Shown: positions 36,444-63,678 of the stretch, one piece after another
Layout: every line of letters begins with the position of its first letter
Position numbering within the stretch: position 1 is the stretch's first letter
Virus record (IMG/VR): IMGVR_UViG_3300042340_000066
DNA from: an uncultured virus (IMG/VR IMGVR_UViG_3300042340_000066)
Taxonomy: Duplodnaviria > Heunggongvirae > Uroviricota > Caudoviricetes
Length of the DNA stretch: 64,000 nucleotides
Direction: 5' to 3' (one strand)
Notes under the pieces: model-generated
The model's database searches: none
The model's input: only the letters and a program-made list of their open reading frames with translations
What the model was told of the DNA's origin: nothing
Position numbers and translations under genes: made by a program

Positions 36444-39400
36444 CTATTCTTCTATGTCCAGACTATAGAAGCGCTTGACTCCACGCGAAGCTAACTCGTT
36501 ATACCATTTACGACGATCACGAATAGCGATCTGCTTACGTTCTGGAGTTAGAGACTTGTCATTCTGAATCTGGTCAATGGCTTTCTCAACCTTGCTCATT
36601 TCTTCAGCTATCTCGCGTCCAGCAGGTGCTGCATAGAATTTCTTTTTGTTCTCTGGATCAGCCATCAACCGCTCCATAGTATCCACATTACCTCGACCTT
36701 GAGCGCGAGTAACAGTATCGCGTATTGCACCTACGGCTTGGTTTAGCTCAAAGAACGTATCTACATCTCTATCACGCTCAGGCTTAGTGAGGATACCTTT
36801 AGCCCCACCCATTATGATAGGTACTTCACCCGGATATTTAGCAGGTTTACCCTGACCCTCTTCTAAGAACTTATCGGCTACAAGCCCCATAACCGTCCAG
36901 AGTTCAGTCAGATACCCACGCCCAAAATGCTCAACCTGTATCGGAGACACCCCGAGTGCTCTACCTAACTCAATAGACAAAGAAGAAGCCCCACGAGTCT
37001 GCTCAGTTGGAACAAGACGAGCTTGACCTGCACCGACAATATCGCGCCCTGTGTGGAAGTCAGTATTAGTAACTGCTTCTGCTAAAGGTTTGATAAGTTG
37101 CGGTATCGGTAATGGTGGAGCGAGTGTAGACCATGCAGCCTCTTTAGCCATTTTCTTAGCTTCAGACGGGCGCAGAGTGCCACTGTTTAACCTAACCATA
37201 AGTTCAGGCATGATCTTGGCTGGAAGCCCTAACTCAAATGGAATAGAGAACATCTGGAACGGCGCGTCTTCATCACCCGTAGGCCGTAACCAATTCATCA
37301 ACGCATCGGGAGAGTTGATATAGTCTTCATCATCCTGCATCGCCAGAGTATAAGCCGTGGTGTACGAGGCGATCATTAAAAGCCTAGAAGCAAATAGCCT
37401 ACGCGCCTCTGCCGCTTCACGACGATTCAGACCTTTACCCGTAGCTGCACGGAGCACTGAGTCCAAACTGTTTAACTGAGCAGAGAAGAATGGCACGGTG
37501 GCCCGAATAGACTGCAGTGTGTTGGACCTGCCTTGGTTGGCGAAGTTGATAATCTCACGAGCCCGCATGGTGGCGTAGTTCTTGGCATCCTCACGGGACA
37601 TACCCTTCTTCTTAGCTTCTTTCAGAGCCGCCTTATAGACCTCAACACGAGTCGCAGCATCTGCTGCTTCATGTACGTGCATTACCCAGTCAGCGCCCTT
37701 TTTGAACAAGCCGGGATTTTTGTCGCTTATCTTTTTGAACCGCGCTGGATCAGACAGCGAGTCTATAGCCCCTACTACACCCCGACGCTTGAGCTCACCA
37801 TACTCTTTAGATGCACCCGCGATAATCTTGGCAAAAGACAGCGTAGCGCCTATGGGAGTCACCATACCCGTCTTCGATACTACATTGGCATGGAGCGGGT
37901 CACGTATCAACTGGCGATACCAATACAGTGGATTAACCAAAGTCACCGCGCGGAAAGCCTTGGTGTACTCTCTCGCCGCTTTCATCAATGGGTTCATCAA
38001 AGGCGCAGCCGCTTGGAGTGCGTCAAGCGCTACAGGATCATAAATGCGGTAGTAAAATTCCTTACCATCCTCCTTGAACATGATGGCCTGCTTGTCATCA
38101 CGGCTGGTACGCCTAGCGGCACCGAAAAGCTCCATATCTCTAGCAGCGGTTTTACGAGTCGCGTTCTGCGCGGCGGCTGTAGTCATGAAGGCATAGTGCC
38201 TCTGAAGATTTTCCAGAAGGTTGATAGCTTGTTCGCCACCTTTAAGCGCTTTTACGTTCGGCAGAGACTTAGCACCCCCACCCATCATTCGTACAGTCTT
38301 GTTAGGGTCACGCAGAATATCTTCCTGCGCCATGTAGAGCGGTATGTAGTTGGGTTTGGAGCGCCATTCTTTAGCCACATCCTTGGACACTAAGCCACTC
38401 TCTTCCCACAAGTCCACCAAAGACTTCATCAGACCGTGAACATCCTCCATGATTTTTTTGATTTCTGGATGCTCCTCTAGCCTACGCTTAGCTTCGGCTA
38501 TGTCATCTGCGGTGACTAACTTCTCTCTACCTTCACCACCTATTTTGTCTTTGAGCTTATCCGCTTGTTTGGTGTATTTTTCTGCAAGGTCAGAAGCCTT
38601 CTTCCCTTCCTTAAACGATTGAGTCTTGGCATAGGCATTCAACTTTTTAGCCTTATCACGCAGAGTGTCAATGCGTTCCAGTGTCTCGGCATCTTCCTTG
38701 ATAATCTCTTCGCCGCGCAACGCGCGGAATATCTCGCCTACATACACACGAGGGTTTTTGACCTTTACCTTATCAACGGCCTTGGTGATATTACTCAGAT
38801 TCTTTTTTTGATCCTTCCGGATCATCACGGTGCCGTCGGTAGAGAATACCGGGAAGCCCTCAGTAGTCCCTGCAGTGATGACGTTGAAAATCTGGTCGTT
38901 GGCACTCCCCACAAGATCAGCACGGAGCTTGCCATTCATATCAAAGGTTGACTTGTCCTTTATCGCCTCACGCAGAGCGGCATTCTTATCAATCAGGCTA
39001 GTCTCTAGCCGCGTCCATGCACCACTCTTAATTACATCCGCAGCCGCATCCATCCCCTTACGCAGCACACTACGTTCTTTAGGCTCCTCTTCCTTAACGA
39101 GGGGTTTGGGTTCTTTGGGTGTGACTTCTTCCTTGACCTCCTTGGCGGTGGGCTCTTTTATCTCTACGCCTTTCTTGGAGGTTTCACGGAGCAGGCTTTT
39201 GAAGGTTGAGTCAAGTTTTTCTTGCAATGGGCGCTGTTCGTTATAACGCTTAACTTGACTTTCGTAATCTGCCTTCTTGTTAAGGTAATCGTTAAGTTGT
39301 TGTTTGAACGCTTCTTTTCGTTTTGTGGGTAGACCGAGCAGTCTAGAAACCGCATCTACAAATTTATCCCAAAGCGTCAGGCGTGTGGGGGGTGCCTGAG

Positions 39401-42400
39401 TAGGAGCCTCTGGTTTCTCTATTAGCTTGTTGCCGTTAGAGTCAAACTGTTTAAGCGTTTCTCTAAACGTAGGAGATGTAAGCCCGTAAGCCAGCACTTC
39501 ACCCGGATTGTCCTTAATCGCTTCACCCCAAAACTGTTTGAGTTCAGGAGAGTCTAGCGACTCATATATCTGTCTGGATACACGGTTCAGTTCAGCGGCG
39601 GCTTCAGGATTACGCTGCAACGCAGCTTCAGTCACACCATGTACAAGTTCATGGACAGGTACATCTTCTCTTAGGTTAGCAGAGTCAGAATTGAAGTAGA
39701 TAGTAGGCTTACCATTCTCATCCCATGCCGCAACAGCCGTAGTACCCGTATCAAATTTTTGGCGTATATCCCTATGCACCTTGTCTGCGGCTTTGACCCA
39801 CTTAACTCCAACAGCACCTAAATGCGGAGACTTATTGATAGTGTCAGTGAGTGCGACTAGATCAGCGTCCGTGCCTTTTTCCTTGACCCGCTGAACAAGT
39901 TCTCTAGCATTCGTAGTATCCGCGTAGTCTTCTACCGCTATGGGTCTAATGCCTTTATCTGGGCTAGGGACTCTTGCTTCTCGTATTTCAGGGGGTTGTG
40001 CCCCCATATCCTTCTCACCCGCATCGAACTTAACAACATCGGCAACGGCGTCTTTATCGACCATACCTTCATAGGCTTTATACTCATCCTTCCATAGCTT
40101 CTGTGCGGGTTTGGAGAGGGAGGCGAAGTCAGGTTGTTCGGGAGTGCGTAGGTTATCCCATGCTTCGACGGCTTCTTGAGGTTTGATGTTTGATGGTTTG
40201 GGCGCTTCAACCTTCGGCGCTTCAACCTTCGGCGCTTCAATTTTTGGAGCGGCGGGGACTTCTGGCGCTTTTACTTCTGGAGCAGCTTGCATTTCGGCCT
40301 GCGGCTGCAGTGCTCCTAGCACTTTGTCGCGTACTTTGTTGTTGAACTCAAGCCCGCCTAGCTCTTCGTTTCGGCTCCCCTTCGGTATCTTGGCAGAGAC
40401 AAGTGTTTGTTGTGCGGTATCTAAATCTACACCTGTGATACGGAAGCGGTTATTCGGTAGGTCTTCTACTTTGATCCCTTCGGGGATTTTGATTTCTTCA
40501 ACTTGCCTAACTTCTGGTCGGCTGATACGAACTCCTTCGCCACCTTCTGGGGCACCCCTACCTTCTTGGCGAATTTCGGGTTGTGGCTTGCTGCCAACAT
40601 CAACTTCTGCTGGCTCTTGGACACGCTGGGCACTGGGCACCTCCGGGGTTGTGATTTCTGGTTTAGGGGCAACTGCACTCATACGTTCTTCCAAACGTGT
40701 ATAAGCTTCCGGGGCTATCCGCGCAGTGCTCTTATTAAGAATGTCCGTAATGGCTTCATGGTCTGCAGGGTTGTCTACCTCTAACCCCGCCGCTTTTATC
40801 TTCTTAACCACACCCGCCTTCGGTGGTAGACCCAGCGTGTCTTCAGCCCAGTGTTTGGGCTCCGGTTGTCTTACTGTGGGTTCTGGTATTTCTTCGGAAG
40901 CCACTTCAACGGTAGGAGCGGCAGGAGCAGTAGGAGGGACAGAAGCAGTAGGCAGTTCTTCAGTAGGGATAGTAGGTTGGGCAGCAGGTTCTTGAGGTTC
41001 CACAGGAGGAACAGTGGTATCAACAGGAGGAATATTGGAAGCAACAGCAGGTTCTTCACTCGGTCTTACTCCTACACCAATGCCAGCTTTACGTTCTAGG
41101 TCAGCGATTTCTGCTGCTTGTTTTTTAGCCGCTTCGCTCTCTACCACCTCTGCCTGCTCTGCTTCCGCAGCGCGTTGAGCCTCCAGTTCAGCCTGCCTCT
41201 GTGCGAGTTGGGCTTCTTCTACCGTACCCTTCTTAGCCGCATAACGACCTGCACCGCTCAGACCCCCAGAAACTACACCCAATGGAGCCGATTTAAGGAA
41301 TACGTCTTCATACTCAGCTAGCGCTTCCGGCGTGTTAATAGGCTGGTCAGAGGCTACACGTTCCGCAATACGAGAGGCGACTTCGCCAGTACCCACACCG
41401 ACAACATTTAGCCCAGTTTCTTTAGCGATGTTGCTTAGTCTGGAACCAATCGCTTTACTAGCAGCGTCAACACCTTCTTTAGCTACAATGTCTTTGATGT
41501 AAGCCTGCGCAGACGGAGAGGCAAACTCGCCCAGCAACCCTTTCAATGGGCCTAAGAACCGCATACCGGCTACGTTGACAGCAGTGGACACTGCCGCTGG
41601 GCCGAGGGTTTTCGTTACGTCGGGGGTCTGCCCCATACGTTCTTGTTCGGCTAGCTCACCACCGATTTCTTGAGCACCGATAGCGCCCACACCCGCAGCC
41701 ATCCCCACACCGGGAATCATGAACGCAGGCAATGTAGCGCCAATCGACCCCACACCAGACGCAAGAGGTTCTACAAATTCTTTGCGAACCGTACCCCACA
41801 TACCCATCTGTTTGGCTTCTTCAGGGGTGAGCTCTTGATACCGCTCTGCGGCCTTCTGCTGCCATTCACGTCCTTCTTCGGCGGCGGCTCTACCTGCCCC
41901 CTGCAATAGTGGAGATTCAAAATACTGTCCAGCCTTTTCAGTCGCAGCACCAGCACCACGAGCCATACTACCGAAAGCGCTTTCAGCGCCACTAATCATT
42001 GCTGGGAGAACACCCTTCTTATCACTCTCAGCTTTAGGCTGCTCACCAAAGGCATCGGGGGCTAGCTTACGCATACCCTGCAAAACCTGCTCATCGCTAT
42101 AACTTAGCGGAGCGTCAACAAAAGACCCATCCGGCAGAGAGACTTGACGTAAAGGTTCGGCATCAATCCCGTTGGTTTTAAGGACTTCGGCTAGTTTGGT
42201 TAGGTCTGCACCGGGCTCCACATCTACCGTGGTGCCATCAGAAAGCTTAACGGTTTGGTAGGGGGACTGTTGAGGGGCGGTTTGAGGTGCGTATTGTTGT
42301 GCCCCCATACCTTGGCTTTGAACGCCTTGCCATAGAGCGCGTTGCTTTTCACTAAGTCCACCTTCCCAAGAGCCACCCAGCATACCAAGTCCTTGCCCCC

Positions 42401-43406
42401 CTCCAATATCGAAGTGCATGAGGTCAAGAGCGCCATAGTTTTTCTTACCAGAGAAGTATCCACCCCAACGGAAAGCATCGCCTAACTCTGGATACAATTG
42501 CTGCTGTACGGCACGGGCGGTTTGAGCAAACTGCTCATAGTCTCTAAAATGTTTTGGGTCTTGGTAGTCAGCTAAAGCTTTACCCGTGCGTTTATCTACA
42601 AGCTGTACGTCGATAGCATTGTGTTTGCCATGTTGTCGCTTGTCACCGGGGCGGTAGCCAGATTTGAACTGCACATCAAACGGGGTGTTTTGCGCGGCAG
42701 TACTAAGAATCTGCTGTAGGCGAGGATCAGTCTGACTAATAGGGTGTTTACTTACGCCAGCGCCGACTACATGAGGCTGGAACTCTGGGCTACGAGCGAA
42801 TTGCCCCTGTGGTTGAGCCTGTTCTTGCTGTGGTTGATACCCACCAGAAAATAACTGATTGGCATATTGGATACGTTTGTCATCCCGTGCTTCAGCTTCG
42901 CCGGGGCGCTCATAATACTTACGGTGCGCAATAGCCGCTTCCGCTGGAGTTTTTGCTTGGAGCATTCGCTCAAGCGCTTTCCGTTCAGGACCATTCATTT
43001 CGGCCCATGAGAACTCAAGCTGTTTTAAAAGATCACCCTTACCACCAGCGCGAAGCATCGCTTCTTTACGTGGACCCATAGCCTGCATGATACCGTATGC
43101 CCCACCGGGGTTATAAGCATTTGGGTCTAGGTTAGGCCCAGACTCCTGCATCATACTACCAACCCATCCAGCAGCTATATGGGGAGGAACGCCTTTATTT
43201 ATATAGAAGTTGTATGCTACTTGGGCGTTATCACTAGCACCTTTTCCTCCTTTTGTTCCTTGTGGAACATACCCACCCCCTTGCGGGGTGTATTGAGGAG
43301 CGGTGTAGGGCTCTGGGAGGTATTGGGCTAGCTCTTCTTCCGTGAGGTCTGTTTCAGGACCGTAGATAGAATTTAGGACTTCATCCAGTGTCGGTTCGTA
43401 AGCCAT
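36444..43406 (-). CDS. large polyvalent ejected virion protein (tail-lysozyme-like, M15-like peptidase, HExxH and LPD38-like regions)
   Basis: AAGWVGSMMQES...AYGIMQ...YYERP; SGYRPG..QHGKHNAID...RWGG...DLMHFD; VHELVH; C-terminal PFELG...KPLAEAVTNTDFHTGRDI. Confidence 0.85.
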   Translation of the reverse strand: MAYEPTLDEVLNSIYGPETDLTEEELAQYLPEPYTAPQYTPQGGGYVPQGTKGGKGASDNAQVAYNFYINKGVPPHIAAGWVGSMMQESGPNLDPNAYNPGGAYGIMQAMGPRKEAMLRAGGKGDLLKQLEFSWAEMNGPERKALERMLQAKTPAEAAIAHRKYYERPGEAEARDDKRIQYANQLFSGGYQPQQEQAQPQGQFARSPEFQPHVVGAGVSKHPISQTDPRLQQILSTAAQNTPFDVQFKSGYRPGDKRQHGKHNAIDVQLVDKRTGKALADYQDPKHFRDYEQFAQTARAVQQQLYPELGDAFRWGGYFSGKKNYGALDLMHFDIGGGQGLGMLGGSWEGGLSEKQRALWQGVQSQGMGAQQYAPQTAPQQSPYQTVKLSDGTTVDVEPGADLTKLAEVLKTNGIDAEPLRQVSLPDGSFVDAPLSYSDEQVLQGMRKLAPDAFGEQPKAESDKKGVLPAMISGAESAFGSMARGAGAATEKAGQYFESPLLQGAGRAAAEEGREWQQKAAERYQELTPEEAKQMGMWGTVRKEFVEPLASGVGSIGATLPAFMIPGVGMAAGVGAIGAQEIGGELAEQERMGQTPDVTKTLGPAAVSTAVNVAGMRFLGPLKGLLGEFASPSAQAYIKDIVAKEGVDAASKAIGSRLSNIAKETGLNVVGVGTGEVASRIAERVASDQPINTPEALAEYEDVFLKSAPLGVVSGGLSGAGRYAAKKGTVEEAQLAQRQAELEAQRAAEAEQAEVVESEAAKKQAAEIADLERKAGIGVGVRPSEEPAVASNIPPVDTTVPPVEPQEPAAQPTIPTEELPTASVPPTAPAAPTVEVASEEIPEPTVRQPEPKHWAEDTLGLPPKAGVVKKIKAAGLEVDNPADHEAITDILNKSTARIAPEAYTRLEERMSAVAPKPEITTPEVPSAQRVQEPAEVDVGSKPQPEIRQEGRGAPEGGEGVRISRPEVRQVEEIKIPEGIKVEDLPNNRFRITGVDLDTAQQTLVSAKIPKGSRNEELGGLEFNNKVRDKVLGALQPQAEMQAAPEVKAPEVPAAPKIEAPKVEAPKVEAPKPSNIKPQEAVEAWDNLRTPEQPDFASLSKPAQKLWKDEYKAYEGMVDKDAVADVVKFDAGEKDMGAQPPEIREARVPSPDKGIRPIAVEDYADTTNARELVQRVKEKGTDADLVALTDTINKSPHLGAVGVKWVKAADKVHRDIRQKFDTGTTAVAAWDENGKPTIYFNSDSANLREDVPVHELVHGVTEAALQRNPEAAAELNRVSRQIYESLDSPELKQFWGEAIKDNPGEVLAYGLTSPTFRETLKQFDSNGNKLIEKPEAPTQAPPTRLTLWDKFVDAVSRLLGLPTKRKEAFKQQLNDYLNKKADYESQVKRYNEQRPLQEKLDSTFKSLLRETSKKGVEIKEPTAKEVKEEVTPKEPKPLVKEEEPKERSVLRKGMDAAADVIKSGAWTRLETSLIDKNAALREAIKDKSTFDMNGKLRADLVGSANDQIFNVITAGTTEGFPVFSTDGTVMIRKDQKKNLSNITKAVDKVKVKNPRVYVGEIFRALRGEEIIKEDAETLERIDTLRDKAKKLNAYAKTQSFKEGKKASDLAEKYTKQADKLKDKIGGEGREKLVTADDIAEAKRRLEEHPEIKKIMEDVHGLMKSLVDLWEESGLVSKDVAKEWRSKPNYIPLYMAQEDILRDPNKTVRMMGGGAKSLPNVKALKGGEQAINLLENLQRHYAFMTTAAAQNATRKTAARDMELFGAARRTSRDDKQAIMFKEDGKEFYYRIYDPVALDALQAAAPLMNPLMKAAREYTKAFRAVTLVNPLYWYRQLIRDPLHANVVSKTGMVTPIGATLSFAKIIAGASKEYGELKRRGVVGAIDSLSDPARFKKISDKNPGLFKKGADWVMHVHEAADAATRVEVYKAALKEAKKKGMSREDAKNYATMRAREIINFANQGRSNTLQSIRATVPFFSAQLNSLDSVLRAATGKGLNRREAAEARRLFASRLLMIASYTTAYTLAMQDDEDYINSPDALMNWLRPTGDEDAPFQMFSIPFELGLPAKIMPELMVRLNSGTLRPSEAKKMAKEAAWSTLAPPLPIPQLIKPLAEAVTNTDFHTGRDIVGAGQARLVPTEQTRGASSLSIELGRALGVSPIQVEHFGRGYLTELWTVMGLVADKFLEEGQGKPAKYPGEVPIIMGGAKGILTKPERDRDVDTFFELNQAVGAIRDTVTRAQGRGNVDTMERLMADPENKKKFYAAPAGREIAEEMSKVEKAIDQIQNDKSLTPERKQIAIRDRRKWYNELASRGVKRFYSLDIEE
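40466..40633 (-). CDS. nested 55-aa basic protein in the +1 frame of the 2320-aa gene
   Basis: GGAGGT-N5-GTG; (M)PSVSKSQQKLMLAASHNPKFAKKVGVPQKVAKEFVSADQK... Confidence 0.7.
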   Translation of the reverse strand: MPSVSKSQQKLMLAASHNPKFAKKVGVPQKVAKEFVSADQKLGKLKKSKSPKGSK

Positions 43407-61085: not shown

Positions 61086-61238
61086 TTAACCCAGCTTGGT
61101 AGAAGACTTATCGCCTTTGACGGCTGCACCCGTGCCGCGTACTTTTACGGTCTGAGTGTTGGGCTTCTCATTTGGGTAGCCAGCGGTGTTTGGAGTCGGG
61201 ACTTTTTCGGCGGTACCGCCCGTTTTACGTGTACTCAT
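61086..61238 (-). CDS. 50-aa basic protein
   Basis: MSTRKTGG...KVRGTGAAVKG; not in ORF track. Confidence 0.65.
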   Translation of the reverse strand: MSTRKTGGTAEKVPTPNTAGYPNEKPNTQTVKVRGTGAAVKGDKSSTKLG

Positions 61239-61240
61239 GA

Positions 61241-61426
61241 TTACTTACTCTTTTGGTTCTTGGCACGAGCCATATTCCGGCCCATCTTTTTCATTTCAGC
61301 AGAGGTGACTCCACCTTTCTTGAGACCCTTTAGGCGTGTCTTTTTTCCTTCATGCAATTGGTCATCGTGCATGCCCATAGCCTTCTTAATCATTTTCTTA
61401 TCCTGAGAAACGTCTTCGTGTTTCAT
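61241..61426 (-). CDS. small basic protein
   Basis: DKKMIKKAMGMHD...LKKGGVTS..MKKMGRNMARA. Confidence 0.75.
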   Translation of the reverse strand: MKHEDVSQDKKMIKKAMGMHDDQLHEGKKTRLKGLKKGGVTSAEMKKMGRNMARAKNQKSK

Positions 61427-61762: not shown

Positions 61763-62467
61763 TTACCAGCCTCCGCCTCCTACATAGCTGATAGCGGGAA
61801 CAAATCTTACCGAAGCTCTCTGCCTATCTTCGTCTGCGGCTAACTGGAAGGCTTCGTCGTATATCTGTTTCAGCATCGGGATTCGCCCTTCAGCTTCAGG
61901 AGTCTTGATAGAGAGATAGTATGCCAACCCAGCGATCAAAGCGGGGACAAATCTGAACGGCATATCGGCGGTATTCGTACCTGCGGAACCGGTATCATCC
62001 ATTCTACGGAGCTTCCAATACACCAGCTTGTACCCGTCTACATTGGGGGCAGGCCAGATTCTCGCTATCGGTGCGTCCGTTTGGCGGTCTACAAAAATCT
62101 GAATGGGCCTGCCTGTAGCGAGTTTGTTGGGAATTGTGGCATAAGTAGAGACACTAATACGGGCTATCTGCAGGTCTACTTGCGTGGTGGGATTGCCATC
62201 ATTCTGCCGTACAACGGTTTCAAGCAGGTCTATGGTGTCTGCAGGGAGAGGGTAATTGCTTACGCCCACGCTCAAATTCAAAGAACCCTGTTCGATTGTC
62301 CATAGGTTTAGACCACGCGAAGCCCATTCTTGAAACAGCAAATTGAGGCTGCGCCTCGCCGTTTTGAACTGATAACCCGTGCGTACCTCAACCCCGACTC
62401 TCTCAAAGGCTTCTTCGATGATTTCGGCAAAATCAGGAGTCCAAGTCGCTGTGCCTGAAGTGGTCAT
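61763..62467 (-). CDS. head-tail connector/adaptor-like protein
   Basis: IIEEAFER...ARRSLNLL..EW.SRGLNLWT...PFRFVPALIAGLAYY. Confidence 0.75.
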   Translation of the reverse strand: MTTSGTATWTPDFAEIIEEAFERVGVEVRTGYQFKTARRSLNLLFQEWASRGLNLWTIEQGSLNLSVGVSNYPLPADTIDLLETVVRQNDGNPTTQVDLQIARISVSTYATIPNKLATGRPIQIFVDRQTDAPIARIWPAPNVDGYKLVYWKLRRMDDTGSAGTNTADMPFRFVPALIAGLAYYLSIKTPEAEGRIPMLKQIYDEAFQLAADEDRQRASVRFVPAISYVGGGGW

Positions 62468-62625
62468 TTTTTACTCTTCGCTGCCCGCATGTTATCAACG
62501 AGATTCGGGTAAGGTCGCCCTGCTTTCTTCGCTGCAGCTTTAGCTGAGGCTTTCTTGGCAGAACTTAGCTTCTTTGGTTTGCCTAGCCCTTTAGGGCGCT
62601 CCTTATCCCAAATTTCTTTAGCCAT
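62464..62625 (-). CDS. 53-aa basic protein
   Basis: MAKEIWDKERPK...AKKAGRPYPNLVDNMRAAK; TAATG and ATGA coupling; not in ORF track. Confidence 0.75.
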   Translation of the reverse strand: MAKEIWDKERPKGLGKPKKLSSAKKASAKAAAKKAGRPYPNLVDNMRAAKSKK

Positions 62626-63426: not shown

Positions 63427-63678
63427 TCAACAATTCCATGCTTTTAGGGACAACGCTTTCCGCGTTGGCTTACCTTTTTCATCTTTCATAGGACCGGGCA
63501 TACCGCTCATGCGGGCACAAAATGACTTTCTTCTGCCTGCGTCCTTCTTAGTTTTCGGATTAGGGGCGGGGGGCTTCAGATTCATTCCCTGTGCTTTGGC
63601 GCTAGCGCGGCCTTTTGCATTAAGCCCACCCTTTGGGTCTTTCCCCTCTTTTCTTTGCCAAGCTGGAGACTTAGCCAT
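63427..63678 (-). CDS. small basic conserved protein (DUF6321-like)
   Basis: AWQRKEGK.P.GGLN.KGR...RRKSFCARM...SL.AWNC. Confidence 0.8.
   Translation of the reverse strand: MAKSPAWQRKEGKDPKGGLNAKGRASAKAQGMNLKPPAPNPKTKKDAGRRKSFCARMSGMPGPMKDEKGKPTRKALSLKAWNC

Follow-up and report, generated by a model that had tools for sequence, protein, structure and literature searches.

A small gene inside a giant phage gene

The uncultured phage IMGVR_UViG_3300042340_000066 (Caudoviricetes) is known from metagenomes only. We analyzed a stretch of 64,000 nucleotides (nt) from its IMG/VR record, which we call the window. The minus strand of the window encodes a very long polyvalent virion protein, and a small open reading frame (ORF) lies within this gene in another frame. 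An initial annotation of the window had proposed that the small ORF is a gene in its own right. The features at the locus are:

36444..43406, minus strand: host gene, a 2320-codon polyvalent virion protein with Phage_lysozyme2 at residues 59-186 and LPD38 at residues 2037-2198
40644-40639, minus strand: Shine-Dalgarno-like GGAGGT, followed by 5 nt (GCCCA) and then the nested GTG
40466..40633, minus strand: nested gene of 55 codons, with a GTG start at 40633-40631 and a TAG stop at 40468-40466
40466..40634, minus strand: dual-coding stretch (host codons 925-981), whose host reading is acidic, with many E, G, P, R, Q, and V residues

The nested start lies 2773 nt (3x924+1) from the host start, which places the nested gene in the +1 frame of the host ORF, as the initial annotation had stated. 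The motif, the spacing, and the start codon lie where it had put them. The 55-amino-acid (aa) peptide that it reported matches the translation letter for letter, and its host-frame text is exact. From stop to stop, the nested frame extends another 15 codons 5' of the GTG at 40633, and the ORF listing gives a 70-aa product from an upstream GTG at 40678.

The nested product would be a 5.9-kDa protein with an isoelectric point of 10.6, a net charge of +12, and 14 lysines. Pro-Ser follows directly after the start codon, and the tail is rich in lysine (net charge +6). Contigs from four lake-water sequencing runs (four studies) cover the nested region with 0 differing letters and 0 gaps, so the coexistence of the two frames is not an assembly artefact. 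Two of these four runs are not flagged as a possible source of the record.

The host gene combines an LPD domain with unrelated enzymatic domains in one very long protein of the virion module, which is the hallmark of polyvalent proteins (Phage_lysozyme2, E = 9.5e-24; LPD38, E = 2.8e-17). That it is an ejected protein, as it had been called, we infer from its domains alone.

We think it very likely that the nested ORF is a real gene that is under selection and is translated separately. The mRNA of the giant gene carries a predicted internal ribosome-binding site (GGAGGT) and a GTG start in the +1 frame. Ribosomes would start independently at this site and make a separate 55-aa product. The nested frame encodes a complete member of a large family of small basic phage proteins, and it is the only copy found in this phage lineage. 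Overall, the sequences indicate a conserved dual-coding region. Embedding as such is already known in phages, and this pair of inner and outer genes appears to be new.

The nested peptide belongs to a large family of small phage proteins

The initial annotation had pointed to a family of small proteins that resemble the nested peptide and occur as stand-alone genes. This family is real. The peptide matches positions 1-49 of phrog_16759, which is a profile of 58 positions (E = 1.1e-20). Two PHROGs that are annotated as virion structural (phrog_22033 and phrog_25121) match the peptide as well, over their first 49-53 positions. We built a hidden Markov model (HMM) from 154 distinct family sequences that are not nested, and it finds the nested piece with E = 1.2e-24. 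When we ran this HMM against the 1820 six-frame pieces of the window, the nested piece was the sole match, and the next best piece had E = 1.3. There is no match to Pfam at E ≤ 1, and no NCBIfam family was found either.

Using tblastn, we found the family domain in 123 phage records. In Stenotrophomonas phage BUCT555, the family member is a 52-aa coding sequence; it lies after an unannotated 687-aa gene, which itself lies after the large terminase gene and which, as a guess, encodes the portal. PhiPA3 gp316 is a stand-alone member of 56 aa. In phage 121Q, the family domain is the N-terminus of gp51 (263 aa), which is annotated as virion structural. Scans of IMG/VR and of metagenomes gave at least 468-583 confirmed relatives per scan. 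A profile search of 1.84 billion cluster representatives gave 3078 matches at E ≤ 0.001 and 1479 at E ≤ 1e-10. In most of the best representatives (108 of 150), the family domain lies at the very start of the protein, beginning at residue 1-3.

An alignment of 105 sequences that includes the nested peptide has six invariant residues (Q8, F21, A22, K24, V31, and F35), and the forms of 44-60 aa have a basic tail. Longer members of the family carry an added DUF6321. Among 179 distinct free-standing versions, 171 start with ATG. The nested peptide shares with the free-standing members the domain, the Met-Pro-Ser start, the length class, and the basic tail. In contrast, the free-standing members are separate genes or N-terminal domains and mostly begin with ATG, while the copy in the window is nested, begins with GTG, and avoids T at third codon positions.

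We also considered whether the family belongs to DUF3008 (PF11450), which likewise consists of small viral proteins and is itself without a known function. In the ESM Atlas, a cluster near the query (rank 16, score 0.91, 203/256 features shared) has DUF3008 on 37% of its members. This lead was not confirmed: none of the 105 family members match the DUF3008 model at E ≤ 0.1, and the nested peptide does not match it at E ≤ 1.

The nested arrangement is conserved in other giant genes

Using the C-terminal part of the giant protein as the query, we examined 77 IMG/VR loci with relatives of the host gene. All 14 loci whose giant proteins are 35-100% identical to the query have a family member inside the giant ORF, always in the +1 frame and at codon 647-926. 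These 14 loci represent eight lineages, with giant ORFs of 2046-2644 codons, and their family matches have E values of 6e-16 to 3e-25. Among the other 63 loci (23-28% identity), we found no family match anywhere in the locus (~10 kb).

In the eight lineages, the nested ORFs encode 49-55 aa, with five ATG and three GTG starts, and each is preceded by GGAG, GAGG, or AAGGAG. Three further giant ORFs have a small family member in the same frame relation: L007/L164 (at least 1151 codons), L126 (at least 2197 codons), and L179 (at least 1852 codons). Among the first 160 loci listed, a small ORF inside a very long ORF was seen for the window type (L004), L005/L006/L084, L007, and L126; L179 was added by a third scan. 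All 11 nested lineages have the start codon and a Shine-Dalgarno-like motif, even where the host flanks are diverged or unrelated. The +1 frame and its start signals are thus conserved across homologs of the giant gene. Within the giant gene of the window, nine other same-strand ORFs of at least 40 aa have no PHROG match better than E = 0.009.

The giant proteins vary in their other domains. The N-terminal domain is SLT or Phage_lysozyme2, and the middle part may contain LPD23, FtsK_gamma, or ART-PolyVal. The muralytic domain differs even within one clade (SLT or Phage_lysozyme2; L247 and L256 versus the window, L250, and L255), which points to domain swapping. The nested stretch lies at a module boundary, and on its 3' side the giant sequence differs completely between lineages. 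The giant proteins of L126 and L179 have no Pfam or PHROG match, and their mutual resemblance is limited to the nested gene and the ~90 residues that precede it.

At the nested gene, the window shares a short and nearly identical piece of DNA with the L005-type giant gene:

40216..40644, minus strand: 429-nt island with 94% DNA identity to the L005-type giant gene (L005 5990-6418); the giant proteins are otherwise ~40% identical

The left edge of this island is the first base of the nested Shine-Dalgarno motif. This resembles a joint from recent recombination, placed where one gene begins inside another. In L005, the island is immediately followed by an inserted FtsK_gamma and ART-PolyVal module.

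Another locus, L134 (26-3915), has a free family member of 45 aa downstream of a DarB-like giant gene; the two share a strand and are 216 nt apart. A 295-codon open frame runs over this free copy. We rejected it as a nested case: upstream, the frame reads like GC-rich sequence in an off frame, and beyond the small gene it reads like a separate downstream gene. The layout of L134 may resemble an arrangement that preceded the engulfment of a small gene.

Selection acts on the nested frame

We compared 11 lineages over codons 2-42 of the nested gene, using pairwise Nei-Gojobori proportions of nonsynonymous and synonymous differences (pN/pS), which are descriptive and are not a formal test. Of the 55 pairs of lineages, 54 had at least 8 nt differences and were kept; L247-L248 (fewer than 8) was dropped. 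Apart from the dropped pair and the pair of the window and the L005 type (11 differences), the 11 lineages differ from one another at 26-58 of the 123 compared nt. In every one of the 54 pairs, the nested reading has higher amino acid identity than the host reading, and it also has the lower pN/pS (medians of 0.48 and 1.52). By nested codon position, there are 770, 623, and 1010 differences at positions 1, 2, and 3. Comparing selection in both frames, as the initial annotation had suggested, thus supports purifying selection on the nested frame and not on the host frame, whose reading would simply be kept open.

How the host frame stays open can be seen in the codons of the nested gene. A third-position T before a codon for Lys, Glu, Asp, Asn, Ser (AGY), or Arg (AGR) creates a stop in the host frame. 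The nested ORF of the window has T at none of its 55 third positions, versus a mean of 27% in 18 other long ORFs of the window; if positions were independent, the probability of this would be ~3e-8. The nested ORFs of the other lineages have 0-2 third-position Ts each, even at 42% GC. The near ban on T at these positions thus explains in part how the host frame is kept open. In the equivalent frame of the free-standing versions, there is a mean of 3.1 stops per 40 codons, and just 18 of 179 are free of stops.

The family gene in related phages and the origin of nesting

In the window, in the nearest record (G001, 80% complete), and in five related contigs (52-79% complete), we found exactly one family match each, and it is the nested one. 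This agrees with the earlier observation that the window has no stand-alone copy, which holds for all of its six-frame pieces and for G001. Five complete phages of ~65 kb have distant giant genes that lack the nested gene, and four of these five have a family match elsewhere: two of these matches are strong (E of ~1e-21 to 1e-22) and two are weak (E = 5e-6 and 1e-4). In these related complete phages, the free copy lies at least ~13 kb from the giant gene and does not adjoin it. The nested copy seems to stand in for the free-standing copy of related phages.

One of the complete phages, G010, encodes a 127-aa protein that comprises the family domain and DUF6321. The window retains the second part:

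63427..63678, minus strand: DUF6321 gene of 83 aa in the head-tail module (E = 1.4e-25)

This protein is 61% identical to the DUF6321 part of the G010 protein. The family domain is absent, and the first 11 residues differ from G010. In the lineage of the window, the family domain appears to be gone from its usual site in the head-tail module and to be present inside the giant gene instead.

The initial annotation had proposed that the giant gene absorbed a small gene. The direction of this change is supported, because the family is large and old while the host-frame reading is confined to a few lineages of giant genes: the small gene would be the older, widespread element and the host-frame reading of it would be derived. 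As to the route, the giant gene could have read through into a neighbor, or the small gene could have been inserted into the linker. Our tree of the small proteins (151 rows, 42 columns) needs four state changes, and an approximately unbiased (AU) test retains a single clade of nested genes (p = 0.44). Both one and several origins of nesting are compatible with this tree.

A folded protein predicted to lie opposite an unstructured linker

AlphaFold predicts that the nested protein has helices at residues 6-17, 19-25, and 29-42, with a disordered lysine-rich tail; the predicted local distance difference test (pLDDT) score is 86. The part of the host protein opposite these helices has a pLDDT below 50 and is without secondary structure (from a shallow alignment of eight rows). 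Two small host domains flank this part:

40671..40814, minus strand: small helical host domain with a TLGL...DINNP motif, just 5' of the nested gene and recognizable in most of the eight clade lineages
40305..40484, minus strand: small alpha/beta host domain (pLDDT 71-78), whose start lies under the nested protein's disordered tail

The folded part of the nested protein is therefore predicted to lie opposite an unstructured segment of the host, with the next host domain starting opposite the nested tail. The host reading is probably a hydrophilic, unstructured stretch between two small domains, and the description of it as a disordered linker agrees with this prediction for the stretch over the nested core. 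This provides a natural example of frame sharing, in which a folded part is matched with an unstructured part and third-position T is avoided.

For the nested protein, the top rows of a Foldseek search are helix-turn-helix regulators, and they are weak and not significant (E of 0.96-5; TM scores of 0.4-0.5). In BFVD, the only matches are uncharacterized family members and DUF6321 proteins. Free copies of the family lie near genes for terminase, portal, major head protein, scaffold, and tail fibre. Based on these neighbors, the fusions to virion structural proteins, and the charge, we tentatively suggest that it could be a factor for virion assembly or a virion-associated factor, possibly one that binds nucleic acids.

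We also speculate, with still less confidence, that the giant gene acts as a carrier. An old small gene would have left its neighborhood of adaptor and capsid genes, entered the giant gene at a linker, and become the only copy of the lineage, with the outer frame being the younger. It would encode a partner specific to the giant protein, made at a fixed ratio from the same mRNA; for example, this partner might be a packaging adaptor or a DNA-binding factor that is ejected with the giant protein. If so, conserved small genes may be concealed in other long phage genes as well.

Alternative explanations

The small gene might have been engulfed by the giant gene and have lost its translation, so that the likeness to the family is a leftover. 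As the window and the L005 type recently exchanged the 429-nt island, a dead copy might still look intact in both of them. However, 11 lineages keep an intact frame of 47-77 codons, the start codon, a Shine-Dalgarno-like motif, and the near-invariant residues of the family. Also, substitutions are concentrated at nested third positions, and these genomes have no other copy of the family. We consider a dead copy to be very improbable. We give a similarly slim chance to a programmed +1 frameshift, which would fuse the N-terminal 920 residues of the giant protein to the small domain and end at the nested stop. Frameshifting is common in phage structural genes, and upstream of the start codon, the +1 frame has 15 stop-free codons in the window and 46 in L249. 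But in L126, L257, L255, and L256, the open stretch before the start is just 1-6 codons. Across lineages, this upstream stretch ranges from 1 to 46 codons and is not conserved in sequence, and we saw no conserved shift site (slippery motifs were not formally searched for). What is conserved instead is the start codon and the Shine-Dalgarno-like motif, and, as noted above, the family domain usually begins at the very N-terminus of its proteins.

We think that two further explanations are even less probable. The 2320-codon ORF could be two genes that flank the small gene, with frame 0 untranslated across it. The nested stretch does lie at a module boundary of the giant gene, with wholly different downstream sequences between lineages, and the free copy in L134 lies shortly after a giant gene. 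However, none of the 14 clade loci or the three other lineages has a frame-0 stop, and the same frame of the free-standing versions usually has ~3. Nor did we notice a start signal for a downstream gene, although none was searched for. The least probable explanation is that the nucleic acid is constrained instead of the nested protein, for example by RNA structure or by a site for binding. This stretch is the most conserved DNA between the giant genes of the window and the L005 type. However, the conservation tracks the phase of the nested codons, with third positions changing the most, and the product matches a protein profile of free-standing genes (E = 1e-24).

Separate translation of a selected gene thus remains our preferred explanation, and several points weigh against it. 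The 54 pairs share history and are not independent, many of them are near synonymous saturation (pS of up to 0.79), and nested pN/pS is as high as 0.8 in some of them. Because the 429-nt island was exchanged recently, the window and the L005 type together provide a single independent observation of the nested stretch. Part of the codon signature may reflect the composition of the linker, as T-free host first positions also occur in other linkers of the giant gene (41 of 2266 sliding windows). GGAGGT is not enriched in the window (28 occurrences, versus 26.8 expected from shuffled sequence). We found no promoter-like site within ~2 kb upstream on the minus strand, where the count of sites is at the level of chance, and there was no RNA among the listed runs that hold the nested stretch. 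A second copy of the family is still possible in G001 and the five related contigs, which are 52-80% complete. As to function, our suggestion is based on gene context and annotation; Foldseek found nothing in the PDB at E ≤ 0.001 (best E = 0.96), and VIA-align wide found nothing at Z ≥ 5 (best Z = 3.9).

Comparison to other embedded genes

To our knowledge, there are few textbook cases of embedded phage genes, and annotation pipelines skip such genes. Overlaps of the phiX174 type, such as B within A and E within D, likewise involve an inner gene that is read in a shifted frame, and this inner gene is usually regarded as the younger. The window appears to be the reverse of this ordinary overprinting: the inner gene belongs to an old family, and the outer reading is younger. 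Also, the embedded gene can be recognized by homology, and it has been kept across giant proteins that have diverged to 35-49% identity.

The closest parallel is to the embedded spanin genes of phage lambda, Rz and Rz1, where the passages of PMC6139136 describe a small gene that is wholly within a larger one, in the +1 frame and with its own start. One route to embedding that the same source discusses is that the outer gene becomes longer and runs over the gene that follows it. As in the window, the inner gene is in another frame with its own start signals, and by that account such genes are usually omitted by gene callers; free-standing and embedded architectures both exist, as they do for the phrog_16759-type family. 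However, the nested product in the window has no cysteine, lipoprotein signal, or hydrophobic signal, so it is not a spanin. The outer gene in the window encodes a 2320-codon polyvalent virion protein instead, and the folded nested part is predicted to lie opposite an unstructured host linker. The two products of the window are not known to interact.

The host gene itself resembles the polyvalent phage proteins that are described in passages of PMC5512222, as it combines LPD38 with a muralytic domain and lies among virion genes. Relatives of the host gene add ART-PolyVal, FtsK_gamma, and LPD23. The main text of PMC5512222 does not contain the word "overlapping," and the passages that mention "reading frame" or "nested" concern neighboring small ORFs and a hairpin fold, respectively; a gene within the gene of a polyvalent protein is not described in these passages. 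More broadly, among titles and abstract openings in the open-access PMC and bioRxiv literature on polyvalent proteins, embedded or overlapping phage genes, and LPD38, this arrangement is not described. We also found no papers on DUF6321 in the open-access PMC and bioRxiv literature.

Nested genes are missed by gene callers

The initial annotation had expected gene callers to miss the dual-coding region, and this is what we found. None of 10 nested products (which include both possible starts in the window) is present among ~15 billion called proteins. Local alignments to the nearest small proteins that are called have 74-89% identity over 65-84% of the query. The giant genes of the window type are called: a word search with the host-frame peptide returned three called giant proteins, all of them close relatives. 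A single-protein locus search with the middle part of the giant protein returned the same phage only. The nested products thus form a class of proteins that is absent from the protein databases, which suggests that it would be worthwhile to scan very long phage genes with profiles in all six frames.

Other features of the window

Free copies of the family are very often flanked by phrog_8198 upstream and by phrog_12985 downstream. In the window, phrog_12985 corresponds to an SU10-adaptor-like gene (61763-62467), which also matches the SU10 adaptor family in Pfam. Small lysine-rich ORFs (50, 61, and 53 aa) are found on the minus strand at 61086-61426 and 62464-62625, between the adaptor-like gene and phrog_8198. 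The 53-aa ORF matches phrog_34011 (E = 3.6e-18). The motifs of these ORFs resemble the C-terminal extensions of longer family members, which suggests the shuffling of mini-domains.

Two other features lie in the giant gene's own frame (minus strand), 3' of the nested gene. The Pfam model of DUF3008 has a sub-threshold match (18.2 bits, with a cut-off of 24) at ~39501-39617, or residues ~1264-1302, which is ~850 nt downstream of the nested gene. Near the middle of the giant protein, at ~39640-39660 (residues ~1250-1256), is a HELVH motif that is similar to HExxH and may be a metallopeptidase site; such sites have been described for other polyvalent proteins.

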